Assembly (NCBI GenBank): GCA_965223905.1 | Contig: CBDCXV010000001.1 | Span: 832,001 to 896,000 of the forward strand | From: Candidatus Latescibacterota bacterium | GTDB lineage: Bacteria; Latescibacterota; UBA2968; UBA8231 | Direction of reading: 5' to 3' | Length of the DNA: 64,000 bases | Shown here: positions 2,920-21,432 of the stretch, in pieces | How positions within the stretch are numbered: position 1 is the first letter of the stretch | Layout: every line of letters begins with the position of its first letter | Program-made: the position numbers and the translations under genes | Notes under the pieces: generated by a model | The model's database searches: none | The model's input: only the letters and a program-made list of their open reading frames with translations | Told to the model about the DNA's origin: nothing

Positions 2920-4292
2920 CGGACTCCTGCGACGCGGTCGAAACAGGCAGCGAGCCGTCGCGTCAACTCGCGCCGGTGAAAGGGCCTGAGCGCCGCCGGG
3001 TCGGCGCCGTGGGCCGCGCCCTCGCAGCACTCGCGGTAAAGCCGCACCAGGGCGCCGCGGATAGCCTCTACGTCGTCCGGGGGGACGCAGATACCGGCAT
3101 GCAGTGCGGCCATCATGCGCGCCACCATACCCTCCCCGCACAGGGCGAGAATGGGGCGTCCCGTCGCCGCGTACTCGAAGAACTTGCCGGGAACGTTAGA
3201 GGACGGCCACGGACGCGGGTGATCGACGAGAAGGAGGACATCCGCCCGGCGCTGAAGCTCTAGCGCTGACTCCCGGTCCACTTCACCGGGGATCGCGGCC
3301 ATCCCGGCGCGCAGCAGCGGCCCTGCCGCTTCCCGCTCCGGCGTGCTAAGGCTGCCGACCAGCTCGAGCCGGATGCGCCTGCGCCATTCCGCGTCCTGAT
3401 GAAGCAGGGACTCCAGGGCGGCGAACAACGCCAGCGGCGATCGCTGCGGATGGCTCCCGGAAAAACTGCCGGTGTGAAGGACACGCATCGGACCTGGGAC
3501 GCACTCGTCCGGCGGGTTCGACCCCGGATCCTGGGTGCCCCGGGCTCCCTGGAACAGGGGCCCTGCAGGCCCGGGGCTGTCCTCTTGAGTCTCCTGGGGA
3601 TCGAAACCGTTGGTGATCACCTCGATTTTGCCTCCACTGTCCGGATACGCGGCGCCCAAATACTCGGCGCTGATCTCCGTCGTCGCTATTACCGCGTCCG
3701 CGGCGCTGACGACCCGTTCCTCGAGACGGCGTTCGAGCTCGCGGCGGAACGGCATGTCGTCGAGCCCCGGGTCGAGAGGGTCGTATATCCAGCTGTCGCG
3801 GAAATCGGCTACCCAGGGCAGGGCTGTCCACCGTTGAAGAAACAGGCCGGCCAGGTGGGCGCTTGCCGGCGGGGACGTCGTGTAGATCAGGTCGACCTCG
3901 TGCCGGCGCAGGTAGCGGAGTGCCTTGACGGCCGCCGCCGGAGCCCAGGTGATCTGGCCATCGGGAACAAGCAGCCGGCGTCCCAGCAGCCGAATGGCGT
4001 CTGTCAGGGGGGAACGGGTCCTCGCCGTCGAGGGCCGTGGTTGGCCGCCGGTGCCGCGGTTGAAAAGAAACCGGTAGGCGTGGAGGGGTTCCCAGGCCCG
4101 CAACGCCCCGTCTTCCTTTTTCGGGCGGCCGAAAGCGGTCGTCGTGAGCACCACCGGCCGGTACCCGAATTCCGGCAGGTATCGGGTGAATTTGAGGGTG
4201 CGTTCGACGCCCCCCGACCTGATCGGAGGATAGTGGTAGGCGACAAAGAGAGCGGTTCTCGCGGCGGGAACTCTCTCCTGCTGATCGCTCAT
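2916..4292 (-). CDS. Glycosyltransferase family 4
   Basis: AYHYPP..SGGVER, TSPPASAHL, WVADFRDSW, VITNGFD, PGKFFEYAATGRPIL. Confidence 0.9.
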   Translation of the reverse strand: MSDQQERVPAARTALFVAYHYPPIRSGGVERTLKFTRYLPEFGYRPVVLTTTAFGRPKKEDGALRAWEPLHAYRFLFNRGTGGQPRPSTARTRSPLTDAIRLLGRRLLVPDGQITWAPAAAVKALRYLRRHEVDLIYTTSPPASAHLAGLFLQRWTALPWVADFRDSWIYDPLDPGLDDMPFRRELERRLEERVVSAADAVIATTEISAEYLGAAYPDSGGKIEVITNGFDPQETQEDSPGPAGPLFQGARGTQDPGSNPPDECVPGPMRVLHTGSFSGSHPQRSPLALFAALESLLHQDAEWRRRIRLELVGSLSTPEREAAGPLLRAGMAAIPGEVDRESALELQRRADVLLLVDHPRPWPSSNVPGKFFEYAATGRPILALCGEGMVARMMAALHAGICVPPDDVEAIRGALVRLYRECCEGAAHGADPAALRPFHRRELTRRLAACFDRVAGVR

Positions 4293-4935: not shown

Positions 4936-5025
4936 CTCCGCCCGGGAGACCGCCGCCCGCCGCGGCCCCGGATCTCATCCCTTTCCCGCTTCCAGCAGTA
5001 CAAGGACCCCCGCCGGTCGGGTGCC

Positions 5026-7137
5026 GTGCAGTTCCTCAACCCCGCGGCGCTGATCGCCCTGGCGGCCGCGGCAGTTCCCCTGGCCGTTCACCTGCTGCAT
5101 CGCGGCAGTTCCCAGCCCCTTCCGTTCAGCAACCTCCGTTTCCTGCGCCGCCTGCACCAGAGCCGCATGCGCAGCATCCGCCTGCGCCAGTGGCTGGTTC
5201 TGCTGCTGCGCACTCTCGCTGTGGCCGCACTCGTCCTCGCCTTCGCGCGTCCTGCCTTGCGCGGCGGAGAGGGGGGATGGTTCGGCCGGCCGGCCCCGGT
5301 GGCTGCGGCGATCCTGCTCGACGCCTCGTACAGCACGGGATACCGGCCGGGGTCGGTGCGCATCTTCGAGCTCTTGCGGTCCCAGGCGATCGACCTGCTG
5401 GAGCTGTTTACCCCCGGGGACGAGGTTCGCGTCATCCCCTTTGCCTCCGCTGCGGTCCCGATCGACGGGAAGCTGCCGCAGGAGCTGCGGGAGCTCGCGG
5501 TGCGCCAGGAAGGGACCGACGTCGAGGCGGCACTTCGCGCCGCCGAGCGCCACTTCGAGGAGGCCGGCCTGCGGCGAGAGCTCTTCATCTGTTCCGATCT
5601 CGCAGCCCCGGGCTGGGTGAAGGTCGTCGCCAGACGCTCCCCAGAGTGGTCGCAAACGGCGATCTACACCACCGATCTCCAGCTTTCCGGCCGCGGCAAT
5701 CGCTATCTCTCGGCCGTGGACGCCGGCAGCTGGATGGCCGCTCCGGGCGGCAGATGGCGGATCCGGGCCGAGGTGGTCAACTCCTCGGAAATCCGCTCGG
5801 AGAAGTTCGCCGCCGATCTGTTCATCGACGGGGAGAGGATGCAACGGCGCACGGTCGAGCTTCAACCCGGGGAGCGCTCCGAGCTGGGGTTTGCCACCAC
5901 TCCCCGCCGCGACGGTTTCACCAGCGGATACGTAGAGATCGAAGAGGATGCCTTGACGCTCGACGACAGGCGCTACTTCACCGCTTTCATTCCGCGGCAG
6001 GTTCGCGTGGTGATGGCTGGCGATTCCGGGGATCTCTACTTCGCGCAGCAGGCGCTGGCAGCAGCCGCCTCTGGCGATCCCAGCCTGGAGCTCGACAGCA
6101 GTTCCCCGGGTTCTCTCGGTTCCGGGGTTCTTGACGAGGCCGGGGTGCTGATCCTGTGCAACGTCTCGCAGCTCGGCAGCGAGCAGATCGGGGCCGTCCG
6201 CGATTTCGCGGCGCGGGGAGGGGGGGTCGTTGTATTTCCCGGCCCGGACGCCGACATCAGCTACCTCAACCGCCATCTCCTTTCCACCTTGATTCCGGCC
6301 TCGATCGTGAAAGCGGTCGGGCGCCCGGGGCCCGCGGGCCGGAGACCGGCTTCCTTCCTCCGCCTCGATCCCGCGGCCTCGGACGAGGTCCTGCTCGAGG
6401 GTCTGACCGAGGCTGCTGCCAGGCCTCGTTTCTTCGCCGCCTTCTCCCTGATGACCAACCCCGGCGTTTCGGCGCTGCTCTCTTTCGGGGATGGCTCCCC
6501 GGCCGCGGCCATGGCCTGGCGCCGGATGGGGCGCGTCGTCCTGTTCGCGGTCCCGCTGTCGCTCGAGTGGAGCGAGCTGCCGTCGAGCGCGCTGTTCGCC
6601 CCGTTGCTTCAGCGTCTCTGCCGGCTGCTGGGCACTCCCTCGCAGGGCGGGGGTGGCTACCTGGTCGGTCAGACGGTTCGCCGCCTTCTCCTCGGGGTAG
6701 TTCCAGGCGACCGTGTCGAGGTCCGGACTCCGAGCGGCCGGCGCTACTTCCAGTCGGCCGAGGCGAACTCCGAGGGGACCTTCTGGACCGGGCGTCCTGC
6801 CGAAGCGGGGGTGTGGCGTCTCGAAAAAGGGGGCGAGGTCGTCGACCGCTTCGCCGTCAATGTCGACACCCGCGAGTCGAATCTGGAGGAGGTCTCTCCC
6901 GGCCAGCTCGAGCGCATCTTCGGCCCGGCGCGGGTCGTGCCGCTGGCGTCGGACGCGGACCTGCGCGAACAGGTTCTTGTTCGGCGTTATGGCCGCGAAC
7001 TGTGGCGGGAGTTCCTGCTCGCCGCCCTGGCGCTCCTGCTTGCGGAATCCTGGCTCGCGCGAGCGCCCCGATCGGCAAGCCAGACGGCTGAGGAGGAGCC
7101 GGTTCAGCCGGCCTCCCGCAGCGCCTCGAAGGTGTAG
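5026..7137 (+). CDS. BatA N-terminal domain / vWA domain-containing membrane protein
   Basis: FLNP..L.ALAAAAVPLAVHLL...FSNLRFL, ILLDASYS (MIDAS-like), FAVNVDTRESNL, C-terminal ELWREFLLAALALLLAESWL. Confidence 0.85.
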   Translation: MQFLNPAALIALAAAAVPLAVHLLHRGSSQPLPFSNLRFLRRLHQSRMRSIRLRQWLVLLLRTLAVAALVLAFARPALRGGEGGWFGRPAPVAAAILLDASYSTGYRPGSVRIFELLRSQAIDLLELFTPGDEVRVIPFASAAVPIDGKLPQELRELAVRQEGTDVEAALRAAERHFEEAGLRRELFICSDLAAPGWVKVVARRSPEWSQTAIYTTDLQLSGRGNRYLSAVDAGSWMAAPGGRWRIRAEVVNSSEIRSEKFAADLFIDGERMQRRTVELQPGERSELGFATTPRRDGFTSGYVEIEEDALTLDDRRYFTAFIPRQVRVVMAGDSGDLYFAQQALAAAASGDPSLELDSSSPGSLGSGVLDEAGVLILCNVSQLGSEQIGAVRDFAARGGGVVVFPGPDADISYLNRHLLSTLIPASIVKAVGRPGPAGRRPASFLRLDPAASDEVLLEGLTEAAARPRFFAAFSLMTNPGVSALLSFGDGSPAAAMAWRRMGRVVLFAVPLSLEWSELPSSALFAPLLQRLCRLLGTPSQGGGGYLVGQTVRRLLLGVVPGDRVEVRTPSGRRYFQSAEANSEGTFWTGRPAEAGVWRLEKGGEVVDRFAVNVDTRESNLEEVSPGQLERIFGPARVVPLASDADLREQVLVRRYGRELWREFLLAALALLLAESWLARAPRSASQTAEEEPVQPASRSASKV

Positions 7138-7439
7138 ATCCCGGTGTCGTGGCCGTCGGCCCAGGTGATGCGGATGCCGTAGCGGCCGACGTGCTCGAAC
7201 CTCAATGCCTCGGCGGTCGCGGTCTCCGCCTCTCCCTCCAGCACCGGCAGCTCCCCGGTTGCCGACGGCTCGCTGGCCCGGCGCGCCTCCCGGCACATCG
7301 CGCAGGGACAGCTGCGGCGCAGCTCGCTCAGGAGGGCCTGCGAGCTGGTTCCGTCGCTCCAGGCGATTTCCATGTGCTCCCCTGTCAGGGTGATGGCGGT
7401 GGGTCGCGTCCTCCTCTGCCTGGCCACGGGCAACCTCAC
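7104..7439 (-). CDS. DUF971 / gamma-butyrobetaine hydroxylase-like N-terminal domain protein
   Basis: IAWSDG, LRRSCPCAMC, VGRYGIRITWADGHDTGIYTF. The start is uncertain; GTG at 7439 overlaps the rimO stop. Confidence 0.85.
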   Translation of the reverse strand: MRLPVARQRRTRPTAITLTGEHMEIAWSDGTSSQALLSELRRSCPCAMCREARRASEPSATGELPVLEGEAETATAEALRFEHVGRYGIRITWADGHDTGIYTFEALREAG

Positions 7440-8777: not shown

Positions 8778-9878
8778 TCAGGGATATGCCTCCTGAATGT
8801 ACTCGACCCCGGCGCTTACCACTCTCTCGTCGACGTCTTCGATCAGGCTCACCTCGCCGATGCGGCGGCCGAGAACGAAGCGCAGCCTGCCGTCGCGGCG
8901 CTTCTTGTCGGCATGGGTGCGCTCGACGATGCTCGCCGCCCGAACCCGGCTGATCCCGGGCGGTACTCCCAGGCGCTCGAGCAGCGCATCCTGGCGCCGC
9001 TGTTCCGCTGCCGGCCAGGTGCCGAGCAGCCTGGCGATCTGTCCGGCCGCGGCCATGCCGAGAATCACGGCCTCGCCGTGACGGTACCCCTGGTAGCCGG
9101 TCGCCGCTTCGATCGCGTGGCCGATGGTGTGGCCGTAGTTGAGAATGGCACGCAGGCCGCCCTCCTTCTCGTCGCCCGAGACCACGGAAGCCTTGATGGC
9201 GGCGTTGCGGGCGATCAGCCAGTCGAGCTCCCCTGAATCGATCTCCAGGGCGACGACCTTTTCGATGTCTCGTTCGAGATACTCGAAGAGCTCGGCGTCG
9301 CCAATGACCGCGTGCTTGACGACCTCCGACATTCCGGCGACGCGCTCGGAAACCGGCAGAGTCCGCAGCGTGGCGGGGTCGGCCAGCACCAGGCGCGGCT
9401 GGTGGAAGGCGCCGATCGTGTTCTTGCCGAGGGCGTGGTTGACCGCGGTCTTGCCCCCGATGCTGGCGTCGACCTGGGCGACGATCGTCGTCGGCACCTG
9501 CACGAAGTCGACGCCGCGCAGAAAGGTCGCCGCGACAAACCCGGCGAGGTCCCCGACGACACCGCCGCCGACAGCGGCGATCCAGCAGCCGCGGTCCATG
9601 CGCGCTTCGATCAGCCGCCCGAAGATGCGCTCGGCAGCAGCGAGGTTCTTTTCCGAGTCGCCCCCGGAGAAGAGGATTTCGGTCACTCGAAAGCCGGCGC
9701 CGCGCAGACTCTCGGAAAGAAGTGGAACGCAGCTGTCCGCAAGGGCGGTGTCGGCGATCACCACCGCCCGGTTGCCGAGGCCGAGCTCCCGGCAGCGCCG
9801 CCCGATCTCCGGGAGGATGCCGCTGCCGACCACGACCTCGTAGCCGCGATCCCCCAGCTCGACGGCTACGGACGGCAT
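8778..9878 (-). CDS. aroB: 3-dehydroquinate synthase
   Basis: GGGVVGDLAGFVAATFLRG, VPTTIVAQVDASIGGKTAVN, LNYGHTIGHAIE, HGEAV, DKK. ATG at 9878. Confidence 0.96.
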   Translation of the reverse strand: MPSVAVELGDRGYEVVVGSGILPEIGRRCRELGLGNRAVVIADTALADSCVPLLSESLRGAGFRVTEILFSGGDSEKNLAAAERIFGRLIEARMDRGCWIAAVGGGVVGDLAGFVAATFLRGVDFVQVPTTIVAQVDASIGGKTAVNHALGKNTIGAFHQPRLVLADPATLRTLPVSERVAGMSEVVKHAVIGDAELFEYLERDIEKVVALEIDSGELDWLIARNAAIKASVVSGDEKEGGLRAILNYGHTIGHAIEAATGYQGYRHGEAVILGMAAAGQIARLLGTWPAAEQRRQDALLERLGVPPGISRVRAASIVERTHADKKRRDGRLRFVLGRRIGEVSLIEDVDERVVSAGVEYIQEAYP

Positions 9879-10405
9879 GGCGGCATCCGCTCGAGAAATC
9901 GGTGAATTTCCTCCGCGGCCTCTTCGGGGGTCCGTTCCCGGCACGACTGCACCGTCATGTCGGCGGCGGCGTAGAACGGGGCCCGCTCGATCAGCATGCG
10001 CTCGATTTTTTCCCGTTTCTGTTCCATGGTCAGCCCGGCGAGCAAGGGGCGGGTCTCCTTGCGGCCGACCCGCTCCAGTATCGTGTCCGCGTCCGCTTGA
10101 AGACAGACGAGCAGGCCCGGCGATTGGCGGACGGCGTCGCGGTTGCGCTCCTGGGTGATGGCGCCGCCGCCGAGGGCGACGACGACGTCGCGGCGCCGAG
10201 CGACCTCGACTACGCAGCCGTGCTCGAGATCCCGGAACCAGTCCTCGCCTTTGTCCGCAAAAATATCCGCGATCGCCATGCCGGCGCGCTCCTCCACCAT
10301 GTCGTCGGTATCGATGAACCTGCGTCCCATGCGCCGGGCCAGCAGGCGCCCCACCTTGCTTTTGCCGGTCGCCATGAACCCGGTGAGGAAAACCGGGCCG
10401 TTCAC
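9866..10405 (-). CDS. aroK: Shikimate kinase
   Basis: FLTGFMATGKSKVG P-loop, DTD, GEDWFRDLE, ALGGG, RPLL. Likely GTG start at 10405. Confidence 0.93.
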   Translation of the reverse strand: MNGPVFLTGFMATGKSKVGRLLARRMGRRFIDTDDMVEERAGMAIADIFADKGEDWFRDLEHGCVVEVARRRDVVVALGGGAITQERNRDAVRQSPGLLVCLQADADTILERVGRKETRPLLAGLTMEQKREKIERMLIERAPFYAAADMTVQSCRERTPEEAAEEIHRFLERMPPCRP

Positions 10406-10559
10406 GGGTCGCACCGGCCCCCGGCCGGCAGAAGCCGGGCCCGGGCACACTCCCACCGGCGTGTACTGGGAAGGACACTGCTGTGTGAGCCGAAGCCGGG
10501 CTCGAACGGCTTCGGCCGCGGCCTGCAGGCACCGATGGTCAGCTGCGCGAAGCCCATAA

Positions 10560-12263
10560 TCACATCTCCTCCGGGGCTTTCATCCCAACCAGCTCCAGCC
10601 CCGTGCGCAGCACCGCGCGCACCGCGTCGACCAGCCTGACCCGGGCCTCGGCGAGCTCGGGGTCGCCGGGTACCAGCACCTGCAGTTCGTTGTACATCTT
10701 GTTGGCGACCGCGGCCAGGTCGAGCAGATAGGCGGTGATACAGGAGGGTTCGTTCTCGTCCGCGGCCTGTGCTACCTGTACGGGAAACTCTGCGAGCTTC
10801 CGGGCGACCCGCATCTCGGCGGGTTCCCCCAGCCTGGCCGCGTCGCCGTGGTCCGGCGGTCTTCCGAATCGACTCAGGATGCTGCAGAAGCGCGCATGAG
10901 TGTACTGCAGGTAGGGCCCGGTCTCGCCGTCGAAGTTGAGCACCTCGGCCAGGGAAAAGCTCACGTCGCGGGTGCGACGGTTGCTGACGTCGGCGAACAC
11001 CACAGCCCCTATGCCAACCTGCCGCGCCACTTCCTCCCTGCCGGCGAGCTGTGGGTTCTTCTCAGAGATGATCCGCTGCGCCAGCTCGACGGCGCGCTCG
11101 AGCACGTCTTCGAGCAACAGCGCGTTCCCCTTGCGGCTTCCCATCGCTTCCCCCTTGAACGAGAGCAACCCGAAGGGGGCGTGCACGCAGCGGTTGATCC
11201 AGTCGGCGCCCGCCCGTTCCAGGGAGCCGAAAACCTGGCGGAAGTGCAGCTGCTGCCGGATGTCGGTGACGTAGACCATCTTGTCGAACCGGTAGCGCTC
11301 CCAGCGGTAGCGCAGCGCGGCGAGGTCGCGGCTGTGGTAGGTGCTCGTACCGGCGCTGGTTCGCAGCATGCAGGGGGGGATGTCCTCCCCGAGGCGGACG
11401 ATCAGCGCCCCCTCGCTCTCTTCGGCGAGCCCCTTTTCCGCGAAGAAGGCGATCGTCTCGTCGAGCCGGTCGGCGAAGTGGCTCTCGCCGAGGTAGTCGT
11501 CGAACTCCACCTGGAGAATGCGGTACATGCGCTCCGCTTCACGGCGTCCTTCCTCTACGAAGTACCGCCACAGGGAGACCATCTCCTCGTCGCCTGCTGC
11601 TAGGCGGACGAGACGTGCCCGAGCTTCCTGGGCGAGCTCGGGATGGCTTTTCTGCTCGTCGTTGAAGCGCACGTACAGGTTGGACAGCTCCGCCACCGGA
11701 TTGGTTCTGACCTTGTCGGGATCTGCCCACAAGGTGTAGGCGGCGAGGAGTTGCCCGAAGTTGGCGCCGTAGTCGCCGTAGTAGTTGATGCCAACGCATT
11801 TCCAGCCGAGGAAGGCGTGGATGCGGCGGATGGCGTTGCCGATGGCGGTGGAGCGCAGGTGCTGGATGCCGAACGGCTTGGCGAGATTCGGAGCGCCGAA
11901 GTCGATGGCGAGGGTCTTGCCACGCCCCTGATTCCCGGACCCGTACTGGCTGTCCTTGGCGGCGATTTCCTCGAGGGTGTGGCGAATGAAGGCAGTGCGG
12001 TTCAGCCTGAAGTTGACGTACCCTCCCGCGGCCTCGACGGCGTCGATCCGGTCGCTTGCGGCGCCGCTGAGCCGGGAGGCCACCTCGCCGGCGATCTGGG
12101 CAGGGTTCCGGCGCAGCTGCTTGGCCAGCGTGAAGCAGGGGAGCGCGTAGTCCCCCAATTCCTCCGCCGGCGGTACGGAAAGCAGTTCCCGCAAGGTCTC
12201 GGAATCGAGCCCGGTCGCCGACGCGGCACCTTCGAGTATTTCCTCTACGAACGGATTGGTCAC
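10560..12263 (-). CDS. argS: Arginine--tRNA ligase
   Basis: GDYALPCF, IDFGAPNLAKPFGIQHLRST, GTSTYHSRDLAA, MGSRKG, GETGPYLQYTHAR, C-terminal PEEM. Confidence 0.95.
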   Translation of the reverse strand: MTNPFVEEILEGAASATGLDSETLRELLSVPPAEELGDYALPCFTLAKQLRRNPAQIAGEVASRLSGAASDRIDAVEAAGGYVNFRLNRTAFIRHTLEEIAAKDSQYGSGNQGRGKTLAIDFGAPNLAKPFGIQHLRSTAIGNAIRRIHAFLGWKCVGINYYGDYGANFGQLLAAYTLWADPDKVRTNPVAELSNLYVRFNDEQKSHPELAQEARARLVRLAAGDEEMVSLWRYFVEEGRREAERMYRILQVEFDDYLGESHFADRLDETIAFFAEKGLAEESEGALIVRLGEDIPPCMLRTSAGTSTYHSRDLAALRYRWERYRFDKMVYVTDIRQQLHFRQVFGSLERAGADWINRCVHAPFGLLSFKGEAMGSRKGNALLLEDVLERAVELAQRIISEKNPQLAGREEVARQVGIGAVVFADVSNRRTRDVSFSLAEVLNFDGETGPYLQYTHARFCSILSRFGRPPDHGDAARLGEPAEMRVARKLAEFPVQVAQAADENEPSCITAYLLDLAAVANKMYNELQVLVPGDPELAEARVRLVDAVRAVLRTGLELVGMKAPEEM

Positions 12264-13111
12264 GGTTCCACCTGGCCGACCAGGGCCTGTTTCATTACCT
12301 CCACGGGCGCGGCCACACCGGTCCAGATCTCGAAGGCGCGCGCCCCCTGGTGAACGAGCATCCCGAGCCCGTCGATGGTGCGCGCTCCGGCCTTCTCGGC
12401 CTGCGCCAGCAGGCGCGTGCGCCGCGGTTTGTAGACGATGTCGAGAACGGTGAGGTGGTCGTGCAATACCGACGGATCCGGCAGCGGGGAAGCGTCCGGC
12501 CGCGGATGCATTCCGACCGAAGTCGCGTTGATCAGCAGGCCCGCTGCGCCAATGGCGTCCCCCCCGCCAAGAGTTCCGACGTGCACGCGGCGGGACTCCG
12601 GGTCGAGATCGGCAGCCAGGGCTTCGGCTTTTTCCACGGTGCGGTTGAGGAGCGCCACCTCTTCCACTTCTTCCGCCTGCAGCAAGGCGTAGAGAATGGC
12701 CCGGGCGGCGCCCCCTGCGCCGAGCAGCGCCACCGCCCCCGGCAGGGAATCGAGTCCGCCGTCGGCGCGAAGGCTGGCGATGACGCCTTCCGCATCGGTG
12801 TTGTACCCGGTCAGGCGCCCATCCTGGTTGGCGATCGTGTTCACCGCCCCGATGACCCGGGCTTCTTCCGAGATCTCGTCCAGTCCCTCCATCACCGCCA
12901 CTTTGTGCGGCACCGTTACGTTCAGGCCGCGGATGCCGAGGGTCCGCATCGCCACCGGGACTTCGGCGACGCGGTCCGGGGGTACGGCGAACGGCAGGTA
13001 GGCGAAATCGAGTTCCGTCCTGGCGAGCGCGGCGTTGTGCATCGCCGGAGAGGAGCTGTGCTCGACGGGGTACCCGATCACCCCGAGCAGGCCGGTTCTC
13101 GAGGTGATCAA
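12260..13111 (-). CDS. aroE: Shikimate dehydrogenase
   Basis: GYPVEHSSSPAMHN, GLNVTVPHK, GAVNT, NTD, GAGGAARA, NATSVGM, DGLGMLVHQG. Likely TTG start at 13111. Confidence 0.95.
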   Translation of the reverse strand: MITSRTGLLGVIGYPVEHSSSPAMHNAALARTELDFAYLPFAVPPDRVAEVPVAMRTLGIRGLNVTVPHKVAVMEGLDEISEEARVIGAVNTIANQDGRLTGYNTDAEGVIASLRADGGLDSLPGAVALLGAGGAARAILYALLQAEEVEEVALLNRTVEKAEALAADLDPESRRVHVGTLGGGDAIGAAGLLINATSVGMHPRPDASPLPDPSVLHDHLTVLDIVYKPRRTRLLAQAEKAGARTIDGLGMLVHQGARAFEIWTGVAAPVEVMKQALVGQVEP

Positions 13112-13248
13112 CCGAGGAGATCCTCGATGAACTGGTCGGCTATCTCCAGACTCTCGCTCCAACTCGCACCGTAGAGCAGCTTGATCAACAACACGCCGCC
13201 GCCGAACAGCAGGGCGAGCAGCGCGAACAAGCGAATGAACCCACTCAT
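13108..13248 (-). CDS. 46-aa small membrane protein (below the ORF-track cutoff)
   Basis: MSGFIRLFALLALLFGGGVLLIKLLYGASWSESLEIADQFIEDLLG*. Hydrophobic N-terminal half and acidic amphipathic tail. Starts just after the aroA-like stop behind a purine-rich tract; its TGA overlaps the aroE TTG. Confidence 0.7.
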   Translation of the reverse strand: MSGFIRLFALLALLFGGGVLLIKLLYGASWSESLEIADQFIEDLLG

Positions 13249-13249
13249 G

Positions 13250-14533
13250 TCATCTCTCTTTCTTCTTGTCTTGCAAAGCCTGCAACAGATCGCAGAAGCC
13301 GGGAAAAACCTCTTGCAGACAGCCGCTGTCTGCGAGAACCGTCTCCCCGTCGGCGAGCAGTCCCGCCACCGCGAACGCCATCGCGAGTCCGGAATCGTTT
13401 CTGCAGTCGATCTCGCTCCCGGTCAGGGGCCTGCCCCCTTCTATGACGATCCCCTCGGGATACTCGCCGACTTTCGCCCCGATCCTGCGCAGAGCGGAAA
13501 CCAGGTGAGCGACCAGGTCGTAGCTCCCCTGCCGCAGGGGGGCGATGTCGCGGATGATGAATTCACCCTCCACCTGGGTCGCCAGTACCGCCAGCATCGC
13601 CATCTGATCGAGGAGGCGTTCGGTCCGCCCCCCGGCGACGCGCGTTCCCTTGAGCCTTGCGGCTTCGACAACCAGGTCCGCGGCCTCGTCCTCCCGCTCT
13701 TCGACCGCGGCCTCGCCTCCGATCTGCCTGAGGAGTTCGAGGAACGGGCGCTGTGGCGAGCGCAGCTCGACGTTGCGGATGCGGACCTTCGAGCTCATCA
13801 GGCTCGAAGCGGCCACCACAAGCGGCAGTGCCAACCGCAGCTCACCCGGCACGGAGACCCGAACTGCCCGCAGGTGCGTTCCCCCCTCCACGGTCATCGC
13901 GCGCGCGCCCTCCCGCCGGTTCCGTGAAATTCCGGCGCCGCGGCGCTCCAACAGCTCGGCGACGCGATCCCTGGATGAAAGTGGTTCCCTGACCTCTGTG
14001 GCCCCCTTGCCGTACAGGCCGGCGATCAGGAGCGCCAGCTTTTCCGGTGCCTCGAGGTCGGTCTCGGGATGTGAGGCCCCCTTCATGCCGTCGCCGCGGT
14101 CGAAGATGACTTCATTGCCGGCTTCGAGACGGCCTGCCGCTCCCATCCTGGCGAGGAGCTCGAGGAGCCGGGTGCAGGACTCCTGCTGCGCCGCGGGAAT
14201 CCGGGCCCTAAAGGGGATGCCCTGCCCGGCGAGCACGGCCAGTGCGGGCAGAGCCGCTGCCCCGGTGTCCGTCAGATCGACGAGGCCTTCGACGCCTCCC
14301 AGGGCATGCGGGCCTGCCCCTCGAATCGCCAGGGTGGAGTTTTCCCGCTTGGTTCCGATGCCGGCCGACTGCAGCCAGGAGACCAGGCGCTCCGAGCCCG
14401 GAGGGAGGTTGTCGACTTCCGAGTCCCCCTCGGCAACTGCGGCCAGCAGCAGAGCCAGGGCGGCTCCGTCCCGATCGCCCGGGACGCGCGCCTCCCCCTC
14501 GAGCCTGCGCGCGGCGGCTACTCGCTGCCTCAT
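13250..14533 (-). CDS. aroA: EPSP synthase (AroA) homologue with degenerate active site
   Basis: Full-length 427-aa AroA scaffold (LEGEARVPGD, LLIAGL..GATEVREPLSSRD, VSVPG, LAVLATQVEG, LAMAFAVAGLLADGET, FPGF), located after tyrA. Catalytic motifs are replaced (see findings). Confidence 0.85.
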   Translation of the reverse strand: MRQRVAAARRLEGEARVPGDRDGAALALLLAAVAEGDSEVDNLPPGSERLVSWLQSAGIGTKRENSTLAIRGAGPHALGGVEGLVDLTDTGAAALPALAVLAGQGIPFRARIPAAQQESCTRLLELLARMGAAGRLEAGNEVIFDRGDGMKGASHPETDLEAPEKLALLIAGLYGKGATEVREPLSSRDRVAELLERRGAGISRNRREGARAMTVEGGTHLRAVRVSVPGELRLALPLVVAASSLMSSKVRIRNVELRSPQRPFLELLRQIGGEAAVEEREDEAADLVVEAARLKGTRVAGGRTERLLDQMAMLAVLATQVEGEFIIRDIAPLRQGSYDLVAHLVSALRRIGAKVGEYPEGIVIEGGRPLTGSEIDCRNDSGLAMAFAVAGLLADGETVLADSGCLQEVFPGFCDLLQALQDKKKER

Positions 14534-14561: not shown

Positions 14562-15692
14562 TCACGGCAATCGAGCCTGGTAGCCGAGGGAGTTGAGCAC
14601 CACCAGCGACTGCTCGGCTGCCTCGGGGCTGTCGAACCCCAGGCGGATGGTGCCGCCTTCACCCTCGCGCACCTTCATCACCTCGATGTCGTTGATGTTG
14701 AGATTCGCCGCGGCCAGACCGCCGGCGATTTCCGCAATCACTCCCGGTTTGTCCTCGGCGACGACGAGAATCTCGTGCAGGCGGTGCAGAAACCCCTTGG
14801 CGTCGCGCGGAATCGACGCCCGCATTTCATTGGCGAAATCGAAGTCCCGTTGCAGGCTCTCGTTGCCAACGCGTGCGCGGACATCGCCCAGCATTGCCGA
14901 GAAACGGTCGATCAGCTCGCGAATGCTGTCGCCGTTGGTCCTGCATATGTCCTCCCACACAGGGGCGAAGGGACTGGAGGCGATGCGCGTCAGGTCGCGG
15001 AAACCTCCCGCAGCCAGCGGCAGATACAGGCCTCCTTCTTCCTCGTTCATGCGTCCCACCATCTCGACGAGGGAGGTCGCCAGCATCTGCGGCAAGTGCG
15101 AGATCGCGGCGACGACGCGGTCGTGCATCTCGGCGGACAACTCGACGACCCTGGCGCCGATGCGTCCCAGCAGCAGCTGCAGGTCGGCATAGAGCCGTTC
15201 CGGGACGCGCTCATCCGGTACCAGGATGTAGATCGCATTCTGAAACAGGAACGGATCGGCGGCGCTGACTCCCGATCGTTCGGAGCCGGCCATCGGGTGC
15301 CCGCCTATGAAATAGGCCTTCTCTCTGCCTGCGGTGAGCGCGGTTTGCGCGATCACCCGCTTGGTGCTGCCTACATCCGTGATGAGGGCATTGTCGCGGG
15401 AGAGGCGCATCACCTCGGGGAGGAGTTCCACGATGCGCCGGATCGGGGTGCACAGCAGGATCAGATCGGCATCGGCGATCCCCCTGTCGAGCTCTTCGTA
15501 GGAATACCCTTCGTCGAGCACTCCCAGTTCCAAGGCCTTGGCGATGGTCTCGTTGCGGCTGATGCCGGCAACGCGCGTCGAGGGGGCGGCCTGCCTGACT
15601 GCGAGTCCAAGGGAGCCGCCGATCAGGCCGACGCCGACTATGGCGATACGCTCGAAGACGTCAGCTCTCCTTGCGTCCTGGCTGCGGGCCAT
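14562..15692 (-). CDS. tyrA: Prephenate dehydrogenase with C-terminal ACT domain
   Basis: IVGVGLIGGSLG, TDVGSTK, GGHPMAGSE, HDRVVAAISHLPQ, GGFRDLTRIASS, ACT-like DKPGVIAEI. Confidence 0.94.
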   Translation of the reverse strand: MARSQDARRADVFERIAIVGVGLIGGSLGLAVRQAAPSTRVAGISRNETIAKALELGVLDEGYSYEELDRGIADADLILLCTPIRRIVELLPEVMRLSRDNALITDVGSTKRVIAQTALTAGREKAYFIGGHPMAGSERSGVSAADPFLFQNAIYILVPDERVPERLYADLQLLLGRIGARVVELSAEMHDRVVAAISHLPQMLATSLVEMVGRMNEEEGGLYLPLAAGGFRDLTRIASSPFAPVWEDICRTNGDSIRELIDRFSAMLGDVRARVGNESLQRDFDFANEMRASIPRDAKGFLHRLHEILVVAEDKPGVIAEIAGGLAAANLNINDIEVMKVREGEGGTIRLGFDSPEAAEQSLVVLNSLGYQARLP

Positions 15693-16014: not shown

Positions 16015-17001
16015 CTAGCGAAAACCCATGACCGCGCGCACGCGATCCATCGTCCGCTCGACGACAGGGCTCGCCTTTCCCGCCCCCTGTTCCAGAATCC
16101 CGTCCAGGTAGTGCGGATCTGCGGTTATCTCGCGGTACTTCTCCTGCAGCGGCGCCAACGACTCGATCACGAGGTCGGCGAGCTCCCCCTTGAGGTCTCC
16201 GTACCCCTTGCCTTGGAATCGGGCTTCGATCTCCTCCTCGCTGCGTCCGGACAGCGCCTGGTATATCGTCAGCAGGTTGAAAAGCCCGGGGCGCTGGGGG
16301 TTGAAAACGATATCCCGCTCCGAGTCGGTGACCGCCCGCGCCAGCTTCCTGCGTATCACCTTCGGGTCGTCGAGAAGGCCGATGGCGTGGTACTTGCCCG
16401 TCTCGGATTTCGACATCTTCCTGGTGGGGTCATCCAGACCCATGACGCGCGCCCCGACGGGCCGAATCAGCGGCTCGGGCGCGGTGAACACCTTTCCGAA
16501 GCGATTGTTGAAGCGGTTGGCGATGTCGCGCGCCAGCTCGACGTGCTGCTTCTGATCCTCGCCGACAGGGACCGCGTCCGCCTGGTAGATGAGGATGTCG
16601 GCAGCCATGAGCACGGGGTAGGCGAAGAGCCCGGTGCCGATCGCTTCGTCGCGTCCGCCTGCCTTGTCCTTGAACTGCGTCATCCGCTGCAGCCAGCCCA
16701 TCGGCGTCACGCAGGTGAGCAGCCAGGTGAGCTCGGTGTGTTCGGGGACGTGCGACTGCACGAACAGGACGCTGCGTTCCGGGTCGATGCCGGCAGCCAG
16801 GAGAACGGCGGCCATCAGCCGGGTGTTCGCCCTGAGCACTTCGGGATCGTAGTCGACGGTGATGGCGTGCTGATCGACGATGCAGAAGTAGTTCTCGTAC
16901 TTCTCCTGGTCGGCCACCCAGTGAGCGATGGCACCGATGAGGTTGCCGATGTGGGGCTCGCCGCTCGGCTGGATGCCGGAAAGGACTCTTTTTCTGGCCA
17001 C
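16015..17001 (-). CDS. trpS: Tryptophan--tRNA ligase
   Basis: SGIQPSGEPHIGN, YPVLMAADIL, VPVGEDQKQH, KMSKS. Confidence 0.97.
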   Translation of the reverse strand: MARKRVLSGIQPSGEPHIGNLIGAIAHWVADQEKYENYFCIVDQHAITVDYDPEVLRANTRLMAAVLLAAGIDPERSVLFVQSHVPEHTELTWLLTCVTPMGWLQRMTQFKDKAGGRDEAIGTGLFAYPVLMAADILIYQADAVPVGEDQKQHVELARDIANRFNNRFGKVFTAPEPLIRPVGARVMGLDDPTRKMSKSETGKYHAIGLLDDPKVIRRKLARAVTDSERDIVFNPQRPGLFNLLTIYQALSGRSEEEIEARFQGKGYGDLKGELADLVIESLAPLQEKYREITADPHYLDGILEQGAGKASPVVERTMDRVRAVMGFR

Positions 17002-17009
17002 CTCGATTC

Positions 17010-17804
17010 CTACCTGGCGAGCAATTCCCCGACTTTGGCGCCGATGTCCGGCTCGCGCATCAGGGCTTCGCCGACGAGCACCGCGTCGGCGCCGGCTTCT
17101 CCGACCGCCTCGACGTCGGCGCGTGTATTGATGCCGCTCTCGCTGACCGTGACCGCATTGCCTCCGATCTGCGGCAGCAGCTCGAATGTCGTTTCCAGAG
17201 TGGTGGTGAAGGTCTTGAGATCGCGGTTGTTGACGCCGATCGGATCGGCGCCGGCCGCCAGCGCGCGCTGCACCTCCTCCAGGCAGTGCACTTCAACGAG
17301 CACCGCGAGTCCGAGTTCGCGCCCGATCCCGAGGAAGTCCTCCAGCTGCCCGCCGTCCATAAGGGCGACGATCAGGAGCACGGCATCGGCGCCGATGACG
17401 CGCGCCTCGTGCAGTTGGTACTGATCGACGGTGAAATCCTTGCGCAATACCGGCAGCCCTGCCGCGGCGCGCGCCGACTGCAGATGGTCGTCGCATCCCT
17501 GAAAGTACCCCTCGTCGGTAAGCACCGACAACGCGCTTGCACCGCTCCCTGCGTAGATGGCGGCGATATCCGAGGGATTGAAATCGGCGCGAATCACACC
17601 CTTGGATGGAGAGGCTTTTTTGATTTCCGCGATTAGGGCGACACCTTCCCCGGTCAGGGCGCCGCGAAAATCGAGAGGCTGCGGGCAGTCCCGTGCATGC
17701 GCGCGCACGTCCGCAAGCGAGCGGGCCGCCATGGCGCGCGCCACGAAGTCGCGCTTGTAGGCGGCGATCTCCCGCAGGATATCGGTCTCTTTTGCGACCG
17801 TCAT
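17010..17804 (-). CDS. trpC: Indole-3-glycerol phosphate synthase
   Basis: IAEIKKASPSKG, LSVLTD, LRKDF, LVEVH, GVNNRDL, SESGI, LVGEALM. ATG at 17804. Confidence 0.96.
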   Translation of the reverse strand: MTVAKETDILREIAAYKRDFVARAMAARSLADVRAHARDCPQPLDFRGALTGEGVALIAEIKKASPSKGVIRADFNPSDIAAIYAGSGASALSVLTDEGYFQGCDDHLQSARAAAGLPVLRKDFTVDQYQLHEARVIGADAVLLIVALMDGGQLEDFLGIGRELGLAVLVEVHCLEEVQRALAAGADPIGVNNRDLKTFTTTLETTFELLPQIGGNAVTVSESGINTRADVEAVGEAGADAVLVGEALMREPDIGAKVGELLAR

Positions 17805-17961
17805 GTTCCCTGGAGCAATTCCGGCAACCGCGCCCGGCGTCCACTCCCGGAGATGGACCGCGGCGATTCGGCCGGGGAAGGGCCTGGCTCCAAAGGCGCC
17901 TGAGCGAGTCGCACCCGGGCGGTGCGGCGAGCGAGCGGCCGGATATCGAGGGAATAGGACA

Positions 17962-18972
17962 TTATGAGTTGCTGACTTCGACCAGCTTTTCCAGGGCCGC
18001 GAGCCCCGCGCCCGAGGCGATGCCCTCCTCGGCAACGGCGGCCCCGGAAGGCAGATCCTCCGCGAGGTCTCCGGCGGCAACGGCGGCGGCGGCGTTCATC
18101 ACGACGATATCCTTCGCCGGCCCCGGCTTGCCTTCGAGCACCGACCGCAGGATGGCGGCGTTGTCGGCAGCCGTTCCCCCCTGGAGATCGGCGGCTGTCG
18201 CCGTCTCGAAGCCGAAACTGCCCGGGGTGACCTCGAAGGTTCTCAGGGCTCCGTTTTTCAGCTCGGTGACCTGCGAAGGCCCGGTCGACGTGATCTCGTC
18301 GAGGCCGTCGCTGCCGTGCACTACGTAGGCGCGTTCAGAGCCGAGCATCTTCAGCACCCCGGCGAGCTTCCCTGTGAGGCTGGCGTCGAAAACGCCGAGC
18401 AACTGCCGCTTCGCCCCGGCCGGATTGGTCAGGGGTCCGAGGATGTTGAAAACGGTGCGGGTGCCGATCTCCCTGCGAGGGCCGATGGCGTGCTTCATCG
18501 CCCGGTGCAACAGCGGCGCGAACAGGAAGCCGATGCCTGCTTCATCGAGGCACTCGGCGACCTTCCCCGGACCCGCCTCGACGTTGACCCCCAGTTCCTG
18601 CAGCACGTCGGCGGAGCCGCACCGGCTCGACATGGCGCGGTTGCCGTGCTTGGCGACGCAGAGCCCGGCACCGGCGGCGACGAAGGCGACAGCCGTAGAG
18701 ATGTTGAAGGTCCCCGAACCGTCCCCTCCGGTTCCGCAGGTGTCGATTTTCGTTCCCCTGCCGCCGCCGATGCGCGTCGCCTTCTCCCGCATCACCTCGG
18801 CGAAACCCGCCACCTCGGTCACGGTTTCACCCTTGCAGCGCAGGGCGATCAGGAAGGCCCCTGTCTGGGCGTCGGTCGCCTGTCCGCTCATGATCTGGTC
18901 CATCGCCCCGCGGGCGCTGTCGCGGTCGAGGTCCTCGCCGTCGAGAAGCTGTTGAATTACGGTCTGCATCAC
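17962..18972 (-). CDS. trpD: Anthranilate phosphoribosyltransferase
   Basis: DTCGTGGDGSGTFNIST, KHGNR..SS.CGSADVL, RTVFNILGPLTNPA, DGLDE. Confidence 0.97.
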   Translation of the reverse strand: MMQTVIQQLLDGEDLDRDSARGAMDQIMSGQATDAQTGAFLIALRCKGETVTEVAGFAEVMREKATRIGGGRGTKIDTCGTGGDGSGTFNISTAVAFVAAGAGLCVAKHGNRAMSSRCGSADVLQELGVNVEAGPGKVAECLDEAGIGFLFAPLLHRAMKHAIGPRREIGTRTVFNILGPLTNPAGAKRQLLGVFDASLTGKLAGVLKMLGSERAYVVHGSDGLDEITSTGPSQVTELKNGALRTFEVTPGSFGFETATAADLQGGTAADNAAILRSVLEGKPGPAKDIVVMNAAAAVAAGDLAEDLPSGAAVAEEGIASGAGLAALEKLVEVSNS

Positions 18973-19000: not shown

Positions 19001-19550
19001 TCAGTTCTGGTTGAGGAAATTGGCGAGCAGCCGCTTGCCGGCCCCGGTCAGGATCGATTCGGGATGGAACTGGACTCCCTGAACCGGGAAGTCGCGGTGG
19101 CGGATGCCCATGATGACGCCGTCGCCGGTTTCGGCCACTACCTCGAGGCAGTCGGGCAGGGTTTCGCGCTCGACGACGAGCGAGTGGTAACGCGTAGCGG
19201 TGAAGGGGTTGGGCAAGTCGGCGAAGAGGCGCTGACCGTCGTGGTGGATTTCCGACGTCTTTCCGTGCATGATGCAGGGGGCGCGCAGGACGATTCCGCC
19301 GAAGGCCTGGCCGATCGCCTGGTGCCCGAGACAGACGCCGAGCAGGGGTATTGTCGGGCCGAGTCGAAGCGCCAGTTCCATCGAGATGCCGGCCTCGTTC
19401 GGCGTACAGGGGCCAGGCGAGATGACGATCTTCTCAGGCTGGAGAGCGGCCACTTCATCGACGGTGATCTTGTCGTTCCGGTGCACCTGCAACTCGGCGC
19501 CGAGCTCTCCCAGGTACTGAACGAGATTGTATGTAAAGGAATCGTAGTTA

Positions 19551-19567
<17 letters not shown>
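19001..19567 (-). CDS. trpG: Anthranilate synthase component II (glutamine amidotransferase)
   Basis: [37 protein letters not shown]. Confidence 0.96.
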
Positions 19568-21137
<1,570 letters not shown>

Positions 21138-21220: not shown

Positions 21221-21253
21221 AAAAAAAAACCGCGAACGCTGATGCGTCCGCGG
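21221..21253 (-). terminator. Attenuator (Rho-independent) terminator upstream of trpE
   Basis: Minus strand reads CCGCGGACGC-ATCA-GCGTTCGCGG followed by T9. Confidence 0.9.
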
Positions 21254-21274
21254 CGACTTTCGGTATTCGTTGTT

Positions 21275-21382
21275 TCAGGCCCCGGCAGGCAATCGGGTGG
21301 ACGCATCCATTTCGCGTTTGTGATAACGACGCCACCAGTATCGGCGGCCTGCGATCGAACCTGCGTCCATGAGTCTCGTCAT
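21275..21382 (-). CDS. trpL: Trp operon leader peptide
   Basis: MTRLMDAGSIAGRRYWWRRYHKREMDASTRLPAGA* with tandem TGG TGG. Lies between the promoter and the terminator; alternative ATG at 21370. Confidence 0.85.
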   Translation of the reverse strand: MTRLMDAGSIAGRRYWWRRYHKREMDASTRLPAGA

Positions 21383-21403
21383 TTCGTCACCTGCAACGGA
21401 AGT

Positions 21404-21432
21404 ATTCTAGAGGGCGGTTCGGCCACTGTCAA
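21404..21432 (-). promoter_or_regulatory. Sigma70-type promoter of the trp/aro operon
   Basis: TTGACA (21432-21427), 17-nt spacer, TAGAAT (21409-21404), just upstream of trpL. Confidence 0.85.

Follow-up and report, generated by a model that had tools for sequence, protein, structure and literature searches.

A retained and predicted catalytically dead EPSP synthase homologue in the aromatic supraoperon of Latescibacterota

The aroAx locus and the fold of its product

The window considered here is a stretch of 64,000 nucleotides from a Candidatus Latescibacterota bacterium (contig CBDCXV010000001.1 of assembly GCA_965223905.1, positions 832,001 to 896,000), and the subject is the gene that occupies its aroA slot, which we name aroAx. 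The gene lies in a long same-strand operon running trpE, trpG, trpD, trpC, trpS, tyrA, aroAx, aroE, argS, aroK and aroB, and encodes a homologue of 5-enolpyruvylshikimate-3-phosphate (EPSP) synthase, the target of glyphosate and among the best studied of enzymes. As set out below, aroAx is very probably dead as an enzyme yet maintained by selection. The window's GTDB family is referred to as f1 and sister families in the same class as f2, f3 and f4, and dN/dS is the ratio of non-synonymous to synonymous substitution rates. The features at the centre of the argument are these:

13250..14533, minus strand: aroAx, a 427-codon, predicted catalytically dead EPSP synthase homologue
14474..14533, minus strand: aroAx codons 1-20, N-terminal strands that structurally belong to domain 1 and are retained in the single-domain forms of sister families (alignment and models)
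13850..14473, minus strand: aroAx codons 21-228, domain 2, with a dN/dS above that of domain 1; approximately codons 16-226 of the gene are missing in f2 and f3 homologues
13253..13849, minus strand: aroAx codons 229-427, the C-terminal part of domain 1, most conserved and present in all forms
13108..13248, minus strand: a small protein of 46 codons, with a hydrophobic helix at residues 7-25 and a conserved acidic tail SWxESLEIADQFxEDLL

The aroAx frame runs on the minus strand from an ATG at 14533-14531 through 427 codons to a TGA at 13252-13250 with no internal stop, and so the coordinates given in a preliminary description of this DNA were right. The longest open reading frame (ORF) over the gene has its far end at a GTG at 14662, and is over-extended, since homologues of aroAx begin at the same methionine as the 427-residue form. 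The Pfam EPSP_synthase model (PF00275) covers the protein end to end (149.8 bits, model positions 3-416 of 417), and an AlphaFold2 model built from 41 family sequences has a predicted local distance difference test score (pLDDT) of 93.6 and a predicted template modelling score (pTM) of 0.89. Searched with Foldseek, this model ranks AroA structures first (E 8e-39), with a template modelling (TM) score of up to 0.83 to apo Coxiella AroA. The two-domain fold of EPSP synthases is therefore present over the full length by Pfam, AlphaFold and Foldseek alike, in agreement with the earlier claim of a stop-free 427-codon frame with its full-length fold kept. By sequence, the nearest solved structures are those of Coxiella (E 1e-49) and CP4 (approximately 3e-27), with the E. 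coli class I enzyme at 5e-10. On the NCBIfam aroA equivalog TIGR01356 aroAx scores 157.3 bits, under the cut-off of 287.25, and its top NCBIfam match is PRK14806 (165.8 bits, on the AroA half of that model); as a MurA it falls short as well, scoring 67.2 bits on TIGR01072 against a cut-off of 392.7. Stretches conserved within codons 229-427 include LAVLATQxEGEFIIRD and AKVGEYPEG.

Loss of the EPSP synthase active site

Changes at the ligand-binding motifs were read from a HMMER alignment to the Coxiella class II enzyme together with a census of 52 aroAx relatives and 62 ordinary class II AroAs of other phyla. All ten motif changes claimed in the preliminary description are confirmed:

aroAx residues 18-26: PGDKSISHR changed to PGDRDGAAL
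aroAx residues 88-92: GNSGT changed to TDTGA
aroAx residues 118-120: RPM changed to ESC
aroAx residues 161-165: SAQVK changed to EAPEK
aroAx residues 188-192: RDHTE changed to RDRVA
aroAx residues 229-235: PGDxSSA changed to PGELRLA
NPTR changed to SPQR, with the arginine probably retained, one register off
aroAx residues 308-310: IDE changed to LDQ
aroAx residues 333-340: LRVKESDR changed to LRQGSYDL
aroAx residues 380-382: DHR changed to DSG

In the 62 class II AroAs the canonical residues, given in aroAx numbering, are kept at 92-100% and most of them at 98-100%; these are Lys21, Ser22, His25, Arg26, the GNSGT loop, Arg118-Pro119, Ser161, Gln163, His190-Thr-Glu, Asn258/Arg261, Asp309-Glu310, Lys336, Glu337, Arg340 and His381-Arg382. 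Among the 52 aroAx-family members they are not conserved, and no conserved substitutes are found either. The E. coli equivalents are presumably Lys22 for Lys21, Arg124 for Arg118, Asp313 for Asp309, Lys340 for Lys336, Glu341 for Glu337, Arg344 for Arg340, His385 for His381 and Arg386 for Arg382. At the positions that we take to bind phosphoenolpyruvate (PEP) and phosphate and to serve catalysis (Lys22, Arg124, Asp313, Glu341, Arg344, His385 and Arg386 in E. coli numbering), aroAx has Arg21 (mostly leucine in relatives), Glu118, an Asp309 that is not conserved, Ser337, Leu340, Ser381 and Gly382; among the 62 class II AroAs conservation of the canonical residues at these positions is 98-100%. 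At those presumed to hold shikimate-3-phosphate (Ser23, Arg27, Ser169, Gln171 and Lys340 of E. coli, with the GNSGT loop) it has Asp22, Leu26, Glu161, Pro163, Gly336 and TDTGA. By the equivalog cut-off, the PEP and catalytic residues and the shikimate-3-phosphate residues alike, aroAx thus stands outside the EPSP synthases. Because the same positions are lost throughout the family, the loss of motifs goes far beyond chance, and it extends to the forms found in f2-f4 and in a further family, f10. The product of aroAx would accordingly be predicted to lack EPSP synthase activity.

A second aroA in the genome and in relatives

The genome holding the window (G000; 7.9 Mb in 11 contigs, 93.6% complete) has three PF00275 genes, namely a murA (439.7 bits on TIGR01072), aroAx, and an aroA on contig 10 that reaches 364.5 bits on TIGR01356. 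The contig 10 gene (locus L002) aligns best with class I enzymes (Klebsiella 7TM4, E 5e-53), and it keeps Lys22, Arg27, Gly96, Arg124, Ser169-Ser170-Gln171, Asp313, Asn336, Lys340, Glu341, Arg344, His385, Arg386 and Lys411 in E. coli numbering, Tyr200, now a leucine, being the sole listed ligand residue to have changed. The supposition in the preliminary description that an active aroA would lie elsewhere is thereby upheld as far as score and ligand residues can tell, and it is most likely this class I-type aroA that would supply EPSP synthase activity. With aroC and aroK also present in the genome, the shikimate pathway looks complete. An aroA over the TIGR01356 cut-off occurs in 36 of 41 related genomes, and four of the other five have contig-edge fragments or split matches.

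The contig 10 gene (624007-628254) sits between galactonate-dehydratase-like and NAD-epimerase-like genes, away from genes of the aromatic pathway. Three genomes of the same family (G003, G015 and G018) have in its stead a higher-scoring type of aroA, at 413-433 bits on TIGR01356, which resembles the aroA of the sister families.

Retention of aroAx under selection

The family to which aroAx belongs is well bounded, in that a word-indexed search returned approximately 55 clusters at 40-97% identity, after which identity falls sharply to the 30-35% or so of ordinary AroAs. Of 24 genomes in the same GTDB family 23 carry the gene, and the one without it is 86% complete. Among 42 loci (some genomes being sampled twice) 38 have tyrA, aroAx and aroE in this order, the remaining four being truncated by contig ends, and the frame is open in 42 of 42 aligned f1 loci. 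Between loci aroAx is 38-50% identical and tyrA and aroE 58-71%, so that aroAx is the faster evolving; nonetheless its dN/dS by the Nei-Gojobori method is 0.12-0.31 over 13 pairs, not all of them independent, with 0.05-0.24 for tyrA in the same pairs. Cells above 1 (trpC in three pairs, aroE in two, aroB in one) were ignored as artefacts in which tblastn took a segment in another frame or a paralogue. Constraint is uneven across the protein, with a median dN/dS near 0.18 in domain 1 (codons 1-20 with 229-427) and a value near 0.27 in domain 2 (codons 21-228), which is the higher in 13 of 14 pairs.

Purifying selection together with long retention, visible in the dN/dS, in the 23 of 24 genomes and in synteny across the class, is what is looked for in a pseudoenzyme. 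Both the reading of selection rather than decay that the preliminary description had offered and the check on orthologues that it had proposed come out in its favour, the values being far from neutral. In two RNA libraries that bear the label sponge metagenome, assembled contigs align at 99-100% to 13046-13201, 13453-13672, 13732-13917 and 15217-15406, which gives a weak hint that the region is expressed, at a depth of 2-5 and with RNA libraries able to hold DNA; stretches without coverage carry no information.

Single-domain forms in sister families

In the sister families the slot between tyrA and aroE is filled differently. In f4 it holds a degenerate full-length copy (L097, 437 residues), and in f2 and f3 a protein of 214-227 residues in which, by alignment, the N-terminal strands are fused straight to the C-terminal half, residues corresponding to about 16-226 of aroAx being absent. 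In the EPSP synthase fold the N-terminal strands and the C-terminal half together build one domain, and a model of a short form agrees with such a one-domain architecture (pLDDT 95.0, pTM 0.91), superposing on a single domain of AroA structures with a TM score of about 0.8 and a root mean square deviation of 2.4-3.2 Å over some 200 columns. As one domain cannot close over two substrates, EPSP synthase activity is ruled out for the short forms. Throughout the class, full-length and single-domain forms alike conserve the motifs of domain 1.

Trees of the C-terminal domain group the full-length f4 copy with the f2 short forms to the exclusion of the f3 short forms (96/88; SH-aLRT, the Shimodaira-Hasegawa-like approximate likelihood ratio test, 89). 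Since the deletion junctions also differ, domain 2 has probably been lost twice. The full-length and half-size dead forms are probably one lineage. By the first tree the f1 and f2-f4 dead clades may or may not be sisters, and catalysis may have been lost once or several times. Atlas clusters of 211-225-residue EPSP synthase-domain proteins also exist, a few with Myxococcota or Actinomycetota labels, and single-domain forms may on that account be spread beyond the phylum.

The 46-residue membrane peptide

Directly downstream of aroAx, with its ATG 1 nt past the aroAx stop, is the gene for the 46-residue protein, whose hydrophobic helix reaches a Kyte-Doolittle maximum of 2.47. It follows aroAx directly in 45 of 46 loci, the exception running into a contig edge, and in many of these the aroAx stop and the peptide start overlap as ATGA; it also follows all 11 f2 remnants listed. 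Across 20 peptide sequences Met1, Tyr26, Ser29, Trp30, Glu32, Ser33, Phe40, Asp43 and Leu44 are invariant. Pooled over 10 pairs the peptide frame has 146 synonymous and 92 non-synonymous differences, a dN/dS of 0.15, and the other two frames give 0.95 and 2.9, so that the peptide is a real gene. As only the peptide frame is under selection where it overlaps the longest aroE frame, aroE most likely begins at the TTG at 13111 and not at 13162.

Of 168 genomes from the phylum, other classes included, 144 have the peptide, each in a single copy, and metagenomes yield at least 300 clusters, nearly all of exactly 46 residues. A profile of it run against 1.84 billion proteins returned 25 representatives (at 50% identity), all but one short and stand-alone at 40-108 residues; the exception is a 316-residue protein aligned only at profile positions 18-38. 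Pfam gave no meaningful match (chance-level only, best E 0.027), and its Atlas matches were to unnamed clusters only.

Origin from a live peptide-linked AroA

Three other classes of Latescibacterota, represented by f9, f5 and f7, have an intact class II AroA directly before the peptide, with the motifs VPGDKSISHR, (E/G)N(S/A)GT, RRPM, SAQVKS, RDHTERML, GLNPTR, LIDE, LRKKETDR and DHR, and in those genomes this AroA is the only TIGR01356 match above cut-off. In f10 a different-looking dead copy precedes a diverged peptide, and a canonical aroA is found elsewhere. In all genomes sampled, then, a second aroA accompanies the peptide-linked copy where that copy is dead and is missing where it is live. 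In an unrooted tree a branch with SH-aLRT 92 divides all Latescibacterota forms from 31 class II AroAs that come from other phyla, with stems of 0.33-1.12 for the dead clades against 0.17 for the live clade. From the existence of live, sole-aroA copies in three other classes it follows that the dead copy descends from a working peptide-linked AroA that was replaced by a second aroA. By alignment and tree, then, aroAx is the lineage's own enzyme, made redundant and afterwards stripped of its active site.

The stretches ATQxxGEF and AKVGE were considered as gains of aroAx and dropped, being already present in the live peptide-linked AroAs. Of candidates for a signature shared by the live and dead peptide-linked AroAs only Gly356 qualifies, Glu324 and Arg349 being weak.

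What might aroAx do?

The sequence of events that joins these observations begins with the phylum's class II EPSP synthase in a trp-tyrA-aroA-aroE supraoperon, directly before the peptide. EPSP synthase activity in the class of the window was most likely taken over by another aroA, of class I type, that lies elsewhere in the genome, and the supraoperon copy lost the residues that bind shikimate-3-phosphate and PEP while escaping deletion. Purifying selection, strongest on domain 1, keeps it in the window's family, and in sister families it has been pared to exactly that domain. Because selection is strongest on domain 1 and reduction to it has been repeated, a non-catalytic role can be proposed there, and overall we favour, as somewhat probable, a pseudoenzyme with a binding or scaffolding role exerted through domain 1, the likeliest partners being the membrane peptide, AroE and/or TyrA. 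That aroAx binds the product of a neighbouring gene is a more tentative proposal, to which we would give rather less than an even chance. Start and stop codons overlap between aroAx and the peptide gene and between the peptide gene and aroE, which suggests that the products are co-translated at a set ratio, as is often the case for members of a complex. An older origin of the role can also be entertained, if doubtfully, whereby the AroA of Latescibacterota would have had an ancient second job that is independent of catalysis and tied to the peptide, for instance the docking of pathway enzymes at the membrane. Were that so, the dead full-length and single-domain copies would show a moonlighting function that nature has parted from EPSP synthase activity, with domain loss probably twice along that path.

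Several observations weigh against a scaffolding pseudoenzyme with such partners. The dead status of aroAx is itself read from sequence, and in G007 (90% complete) the TIGR01356 scan of 41 relatives detected no canonical aroA. A search for longer homologues gave no fused forms of aroAx, and among the 25 peptide matches in 1.84 billion representatives there is no fusion of the peptide to AroA or AroE. In family f13 the peptide has RNase P RNA on one side and aroE on the other, and no AroA-like gene precedes it (locus L118 of genome G071, 3688-4082; Rfam RF00010, 304 bits; the peptide stop overlaps the aroE ATG). In f6, with genomes of 1.9-2.5 Mb, it sits away from aro genes, after def, fmt and an unrelated 300-residue protein with a signal-peptide-like start (locus L114, 2067-3198). 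The peptide therefore does not require an adjacent aroAx and can persist outside the aromatic operon. Moreover arginine or lysine at peptide positions 2 and 6, with the acidic tail, would by the positive-inside rule place the tail on the outer side of the membrane, across from a cytoplasmic aroAx. Lastly Gly356 is the sole residue present in all peptide-linked AroAs yet rare in other class II AroAs (3 of 62), so that there appears to be no clear interface signature shared among the peptide-linked proteins.

Two candidates were set aside. The only longer homologue that might have served as fusion evidence for a partner is a canonical gammaproteobacterial TyrA-AroA fusion, at 27% identity, and the 300-residue ORF of f6 as an AroA remnant was ruled out (hhalign probability 0.2%).

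A different use of the same conserved surface would be a rebuilt ligand site, in which domain 1 arginines on the former cleft face (Arg262, Thr297-Arg298 and Arg303) bind an anionic metabolite such as chorismate, prephenate, PEP or a phosphate ester, making aroAx a sensor or the catalyst of a new reaction. All four of these residues are invariant in 41 family members, Arg262 remains so and Thr297 and Arg298 nearly so across full-length and single-domain forms together, and in the secondary structure of the model these residues are predicted at helix N-termini and the preceding loops, where EPSP synthase ligand residues are normally located. However Arg262 is probably just the retained arginine of NPTR, the Thr-Arg pair occurs in some active class II AroAs as well, and in a single domain this face is solvent-exposed and would suit a protein partner equally, which leaves the rebuilt site improbable. 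That aroAx could still work as EPSP synthase in the cell, alone or beside another, by means of an unorthodox active site has in its favour its hold on the aroA slot of the operon and the detection of no other aroA in G007; yet the known catalytic and binding residues are gone without conserved alternatives, the sister families retain one of the two domains needed to close over substrates, an intact aroA is found in G000 and almost all relatives, and the incompleteness of G007 weakens the one exception, so that we regard continued activity as scarcely credible.

The remaining explanation is that the protein is functionless, the gene being a decaying pseudogene or a spacer for ribosomes on their way to the coupled downstream genes. 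The faster evolution of aroAx relative to its neighbours, the start/stop overlap with the peptide gene and the loss of half of the protein in f2 and f3 all fit such decay. Against this the dN/dS is not near 1, none of the aligned f1 frames is broken, the domain 1 motifs persist across the class with both models confidently folded, and a spacer would need no conservation at the amino acid level; decay or spacing is thus very unlikely, if marginally less so than continued catalysis, and a non-catalytic role through domain 1 is the reading that we retain.

The surrounding operon

The neighbours of aroAx in the window are as follows:

19551-21137, minus strand: trpE
19001-20011 (ORF), minus strand: trpG
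17962-18972, minus strand: trpD
17010-18080 (ORF), minus strand: trpC
16015-17001, minus strand: trpS
14562..15692, minus strand: tyrA, prephenate dehydrogenase with an ACT domain, its stop 28 nt before the aroAx ATG
12260..13111, minus strand: aroE, shikimate dehydrogenase, likely start TTG 13111-13109 overlapping the peptide TGA, the longest ORF beginning at TTG 13162
10560-12263, minus strand: argS
9866-10456, minus strand: aroK, shikimate kinase (Pfam SKI 139.6 bits), in another frame within the 5' part of ORF 8778-10532
3' part of the 584-codon ORF 8778-10532, minus strand: aroB, which makes up only the C-terminal two thirds of that ORF

The 584-codon aroB frame is over-extended, as is typical of high-GC DNA. 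The earlier statement that all neighbouring aro and trp enzymes have intact motifs holds in part, and at the level of family scores only: aroE, trpS, trpC, trpD, trpG, trpE, argS and aroB pass their NCBIfam cut-offs, and tyrA and aroK fall under the cut-offs of narrow PRK models though they have strong Pfam or NCBIfam matches. The embedding of argS and trpS in an aromatic supraoperon is kept in nearly all related loci that have sequence on that side. Upstream of trpE, on the minus strand, is a promoter-like TTGACA, 17 nt, TAGAAT (21432-21404). Next come a 35-codon ORF (21382-21275) whose product contains RRYWWRRYH and a hairpin that resembles a terminator and has a T run (21254-21229), and so 21229-21432 looks like a leader-peptide attenuator keyed to tryptophan and tyrosine codons. 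Downstream of a MiaB-like gene a 773-codon ORF (4975-7296, minus strand) has no Pfam or NCBIfam match, and a 25-34% identical counterpart stands at the same place in many related loci.

Relation to known systems

The closest comparison is with the class II EPSP synthases of Coxiella burnetii (3ROI/3SLH) and Agrobacterium CP4 (2GG4), which share with aroAx the full-length two-domain fold and, as a class, a place in an operon beside tyrA. In contrast to them aroAx is without the substrate-binding and catalytic residues, falls below the aroA cut-off, and has single-domain counterparts in sister families. The live peptide-linked AroAs (L112, L113, L116 and L119) occupy the same slot before the same peptide, are about 31-33% identical to aroAx and share with it ATQxxGE(F/V)xxRD, AKVGE and Gly356; they have every class II motif and are the sole aroA, whereas in aroAx the motifs are gone and the genome has a class I-type aroA besides. 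The bifunctional prephenate dehydrogenase/EPSP synthase of PRK14806 shows the same tyrA-aroA linkage as the window, although in the window there are two separate genes, the AroA half being dead.

HisZ, a dead paralogue of histidyl-tRNA synthetase that is a subunit of ATP phosphoribosyltransferase, offers a possible model, in that aroAx may likewise be a housekeeping enzyme's dead paralogue, retained under selection within an amino acid pathway. However HisZ has a demonstrated partner and role, and aroAx is known from sequence and models. The EPSP synthase module of the fungal pentafunctional AROM protein (6HQV) has the same fold as aroAx (Foldseek E 3.9e-26) and shows an EPSP synthase within a multi-enzyme shikimate assembly, where it has a structural role; in contrast to the free-standing and predicted dead aroAx, that module is active and covalently fused. 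Literature on pseudoenzymes of EPSP synthase or aroA, on inactive paralogues and on the shikimate pathway of Latescibacterota yielded no report of a conserved catalytically dead EPSP synthase. A preprint on the classification of EPSP synthases (10.1101/2020.05.27.118265) describes many prokaryotic ones as 'unclassified'. Dead pathway paralogues are a known kind, and a dead EPSP synthase with this history is a new variant of it.

Implications

New here are the class I-type aroA in the window's genome, the domain-wise selection on aroAx, the assignment of full-length and half-size forms to one lineage, the live ancestors, and the association of dead copies with a second aroA. In these genomes the wrong gene would be scored by any annotation pipeline or survey of glyphosate sensitivity that counts PF00275 or 'aroA' matches. 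The 46-residue peptide is a small protein that lacks annotation although it is widespread in Latescibacterota. Overall the phylum presents a natural series within one genomic slot, from a live enzyme with its peptide, through a dead full-length form, to a dead single-domain form, and this series makes directly testable the question of why an enzyme fold persists once catalysis is gone.

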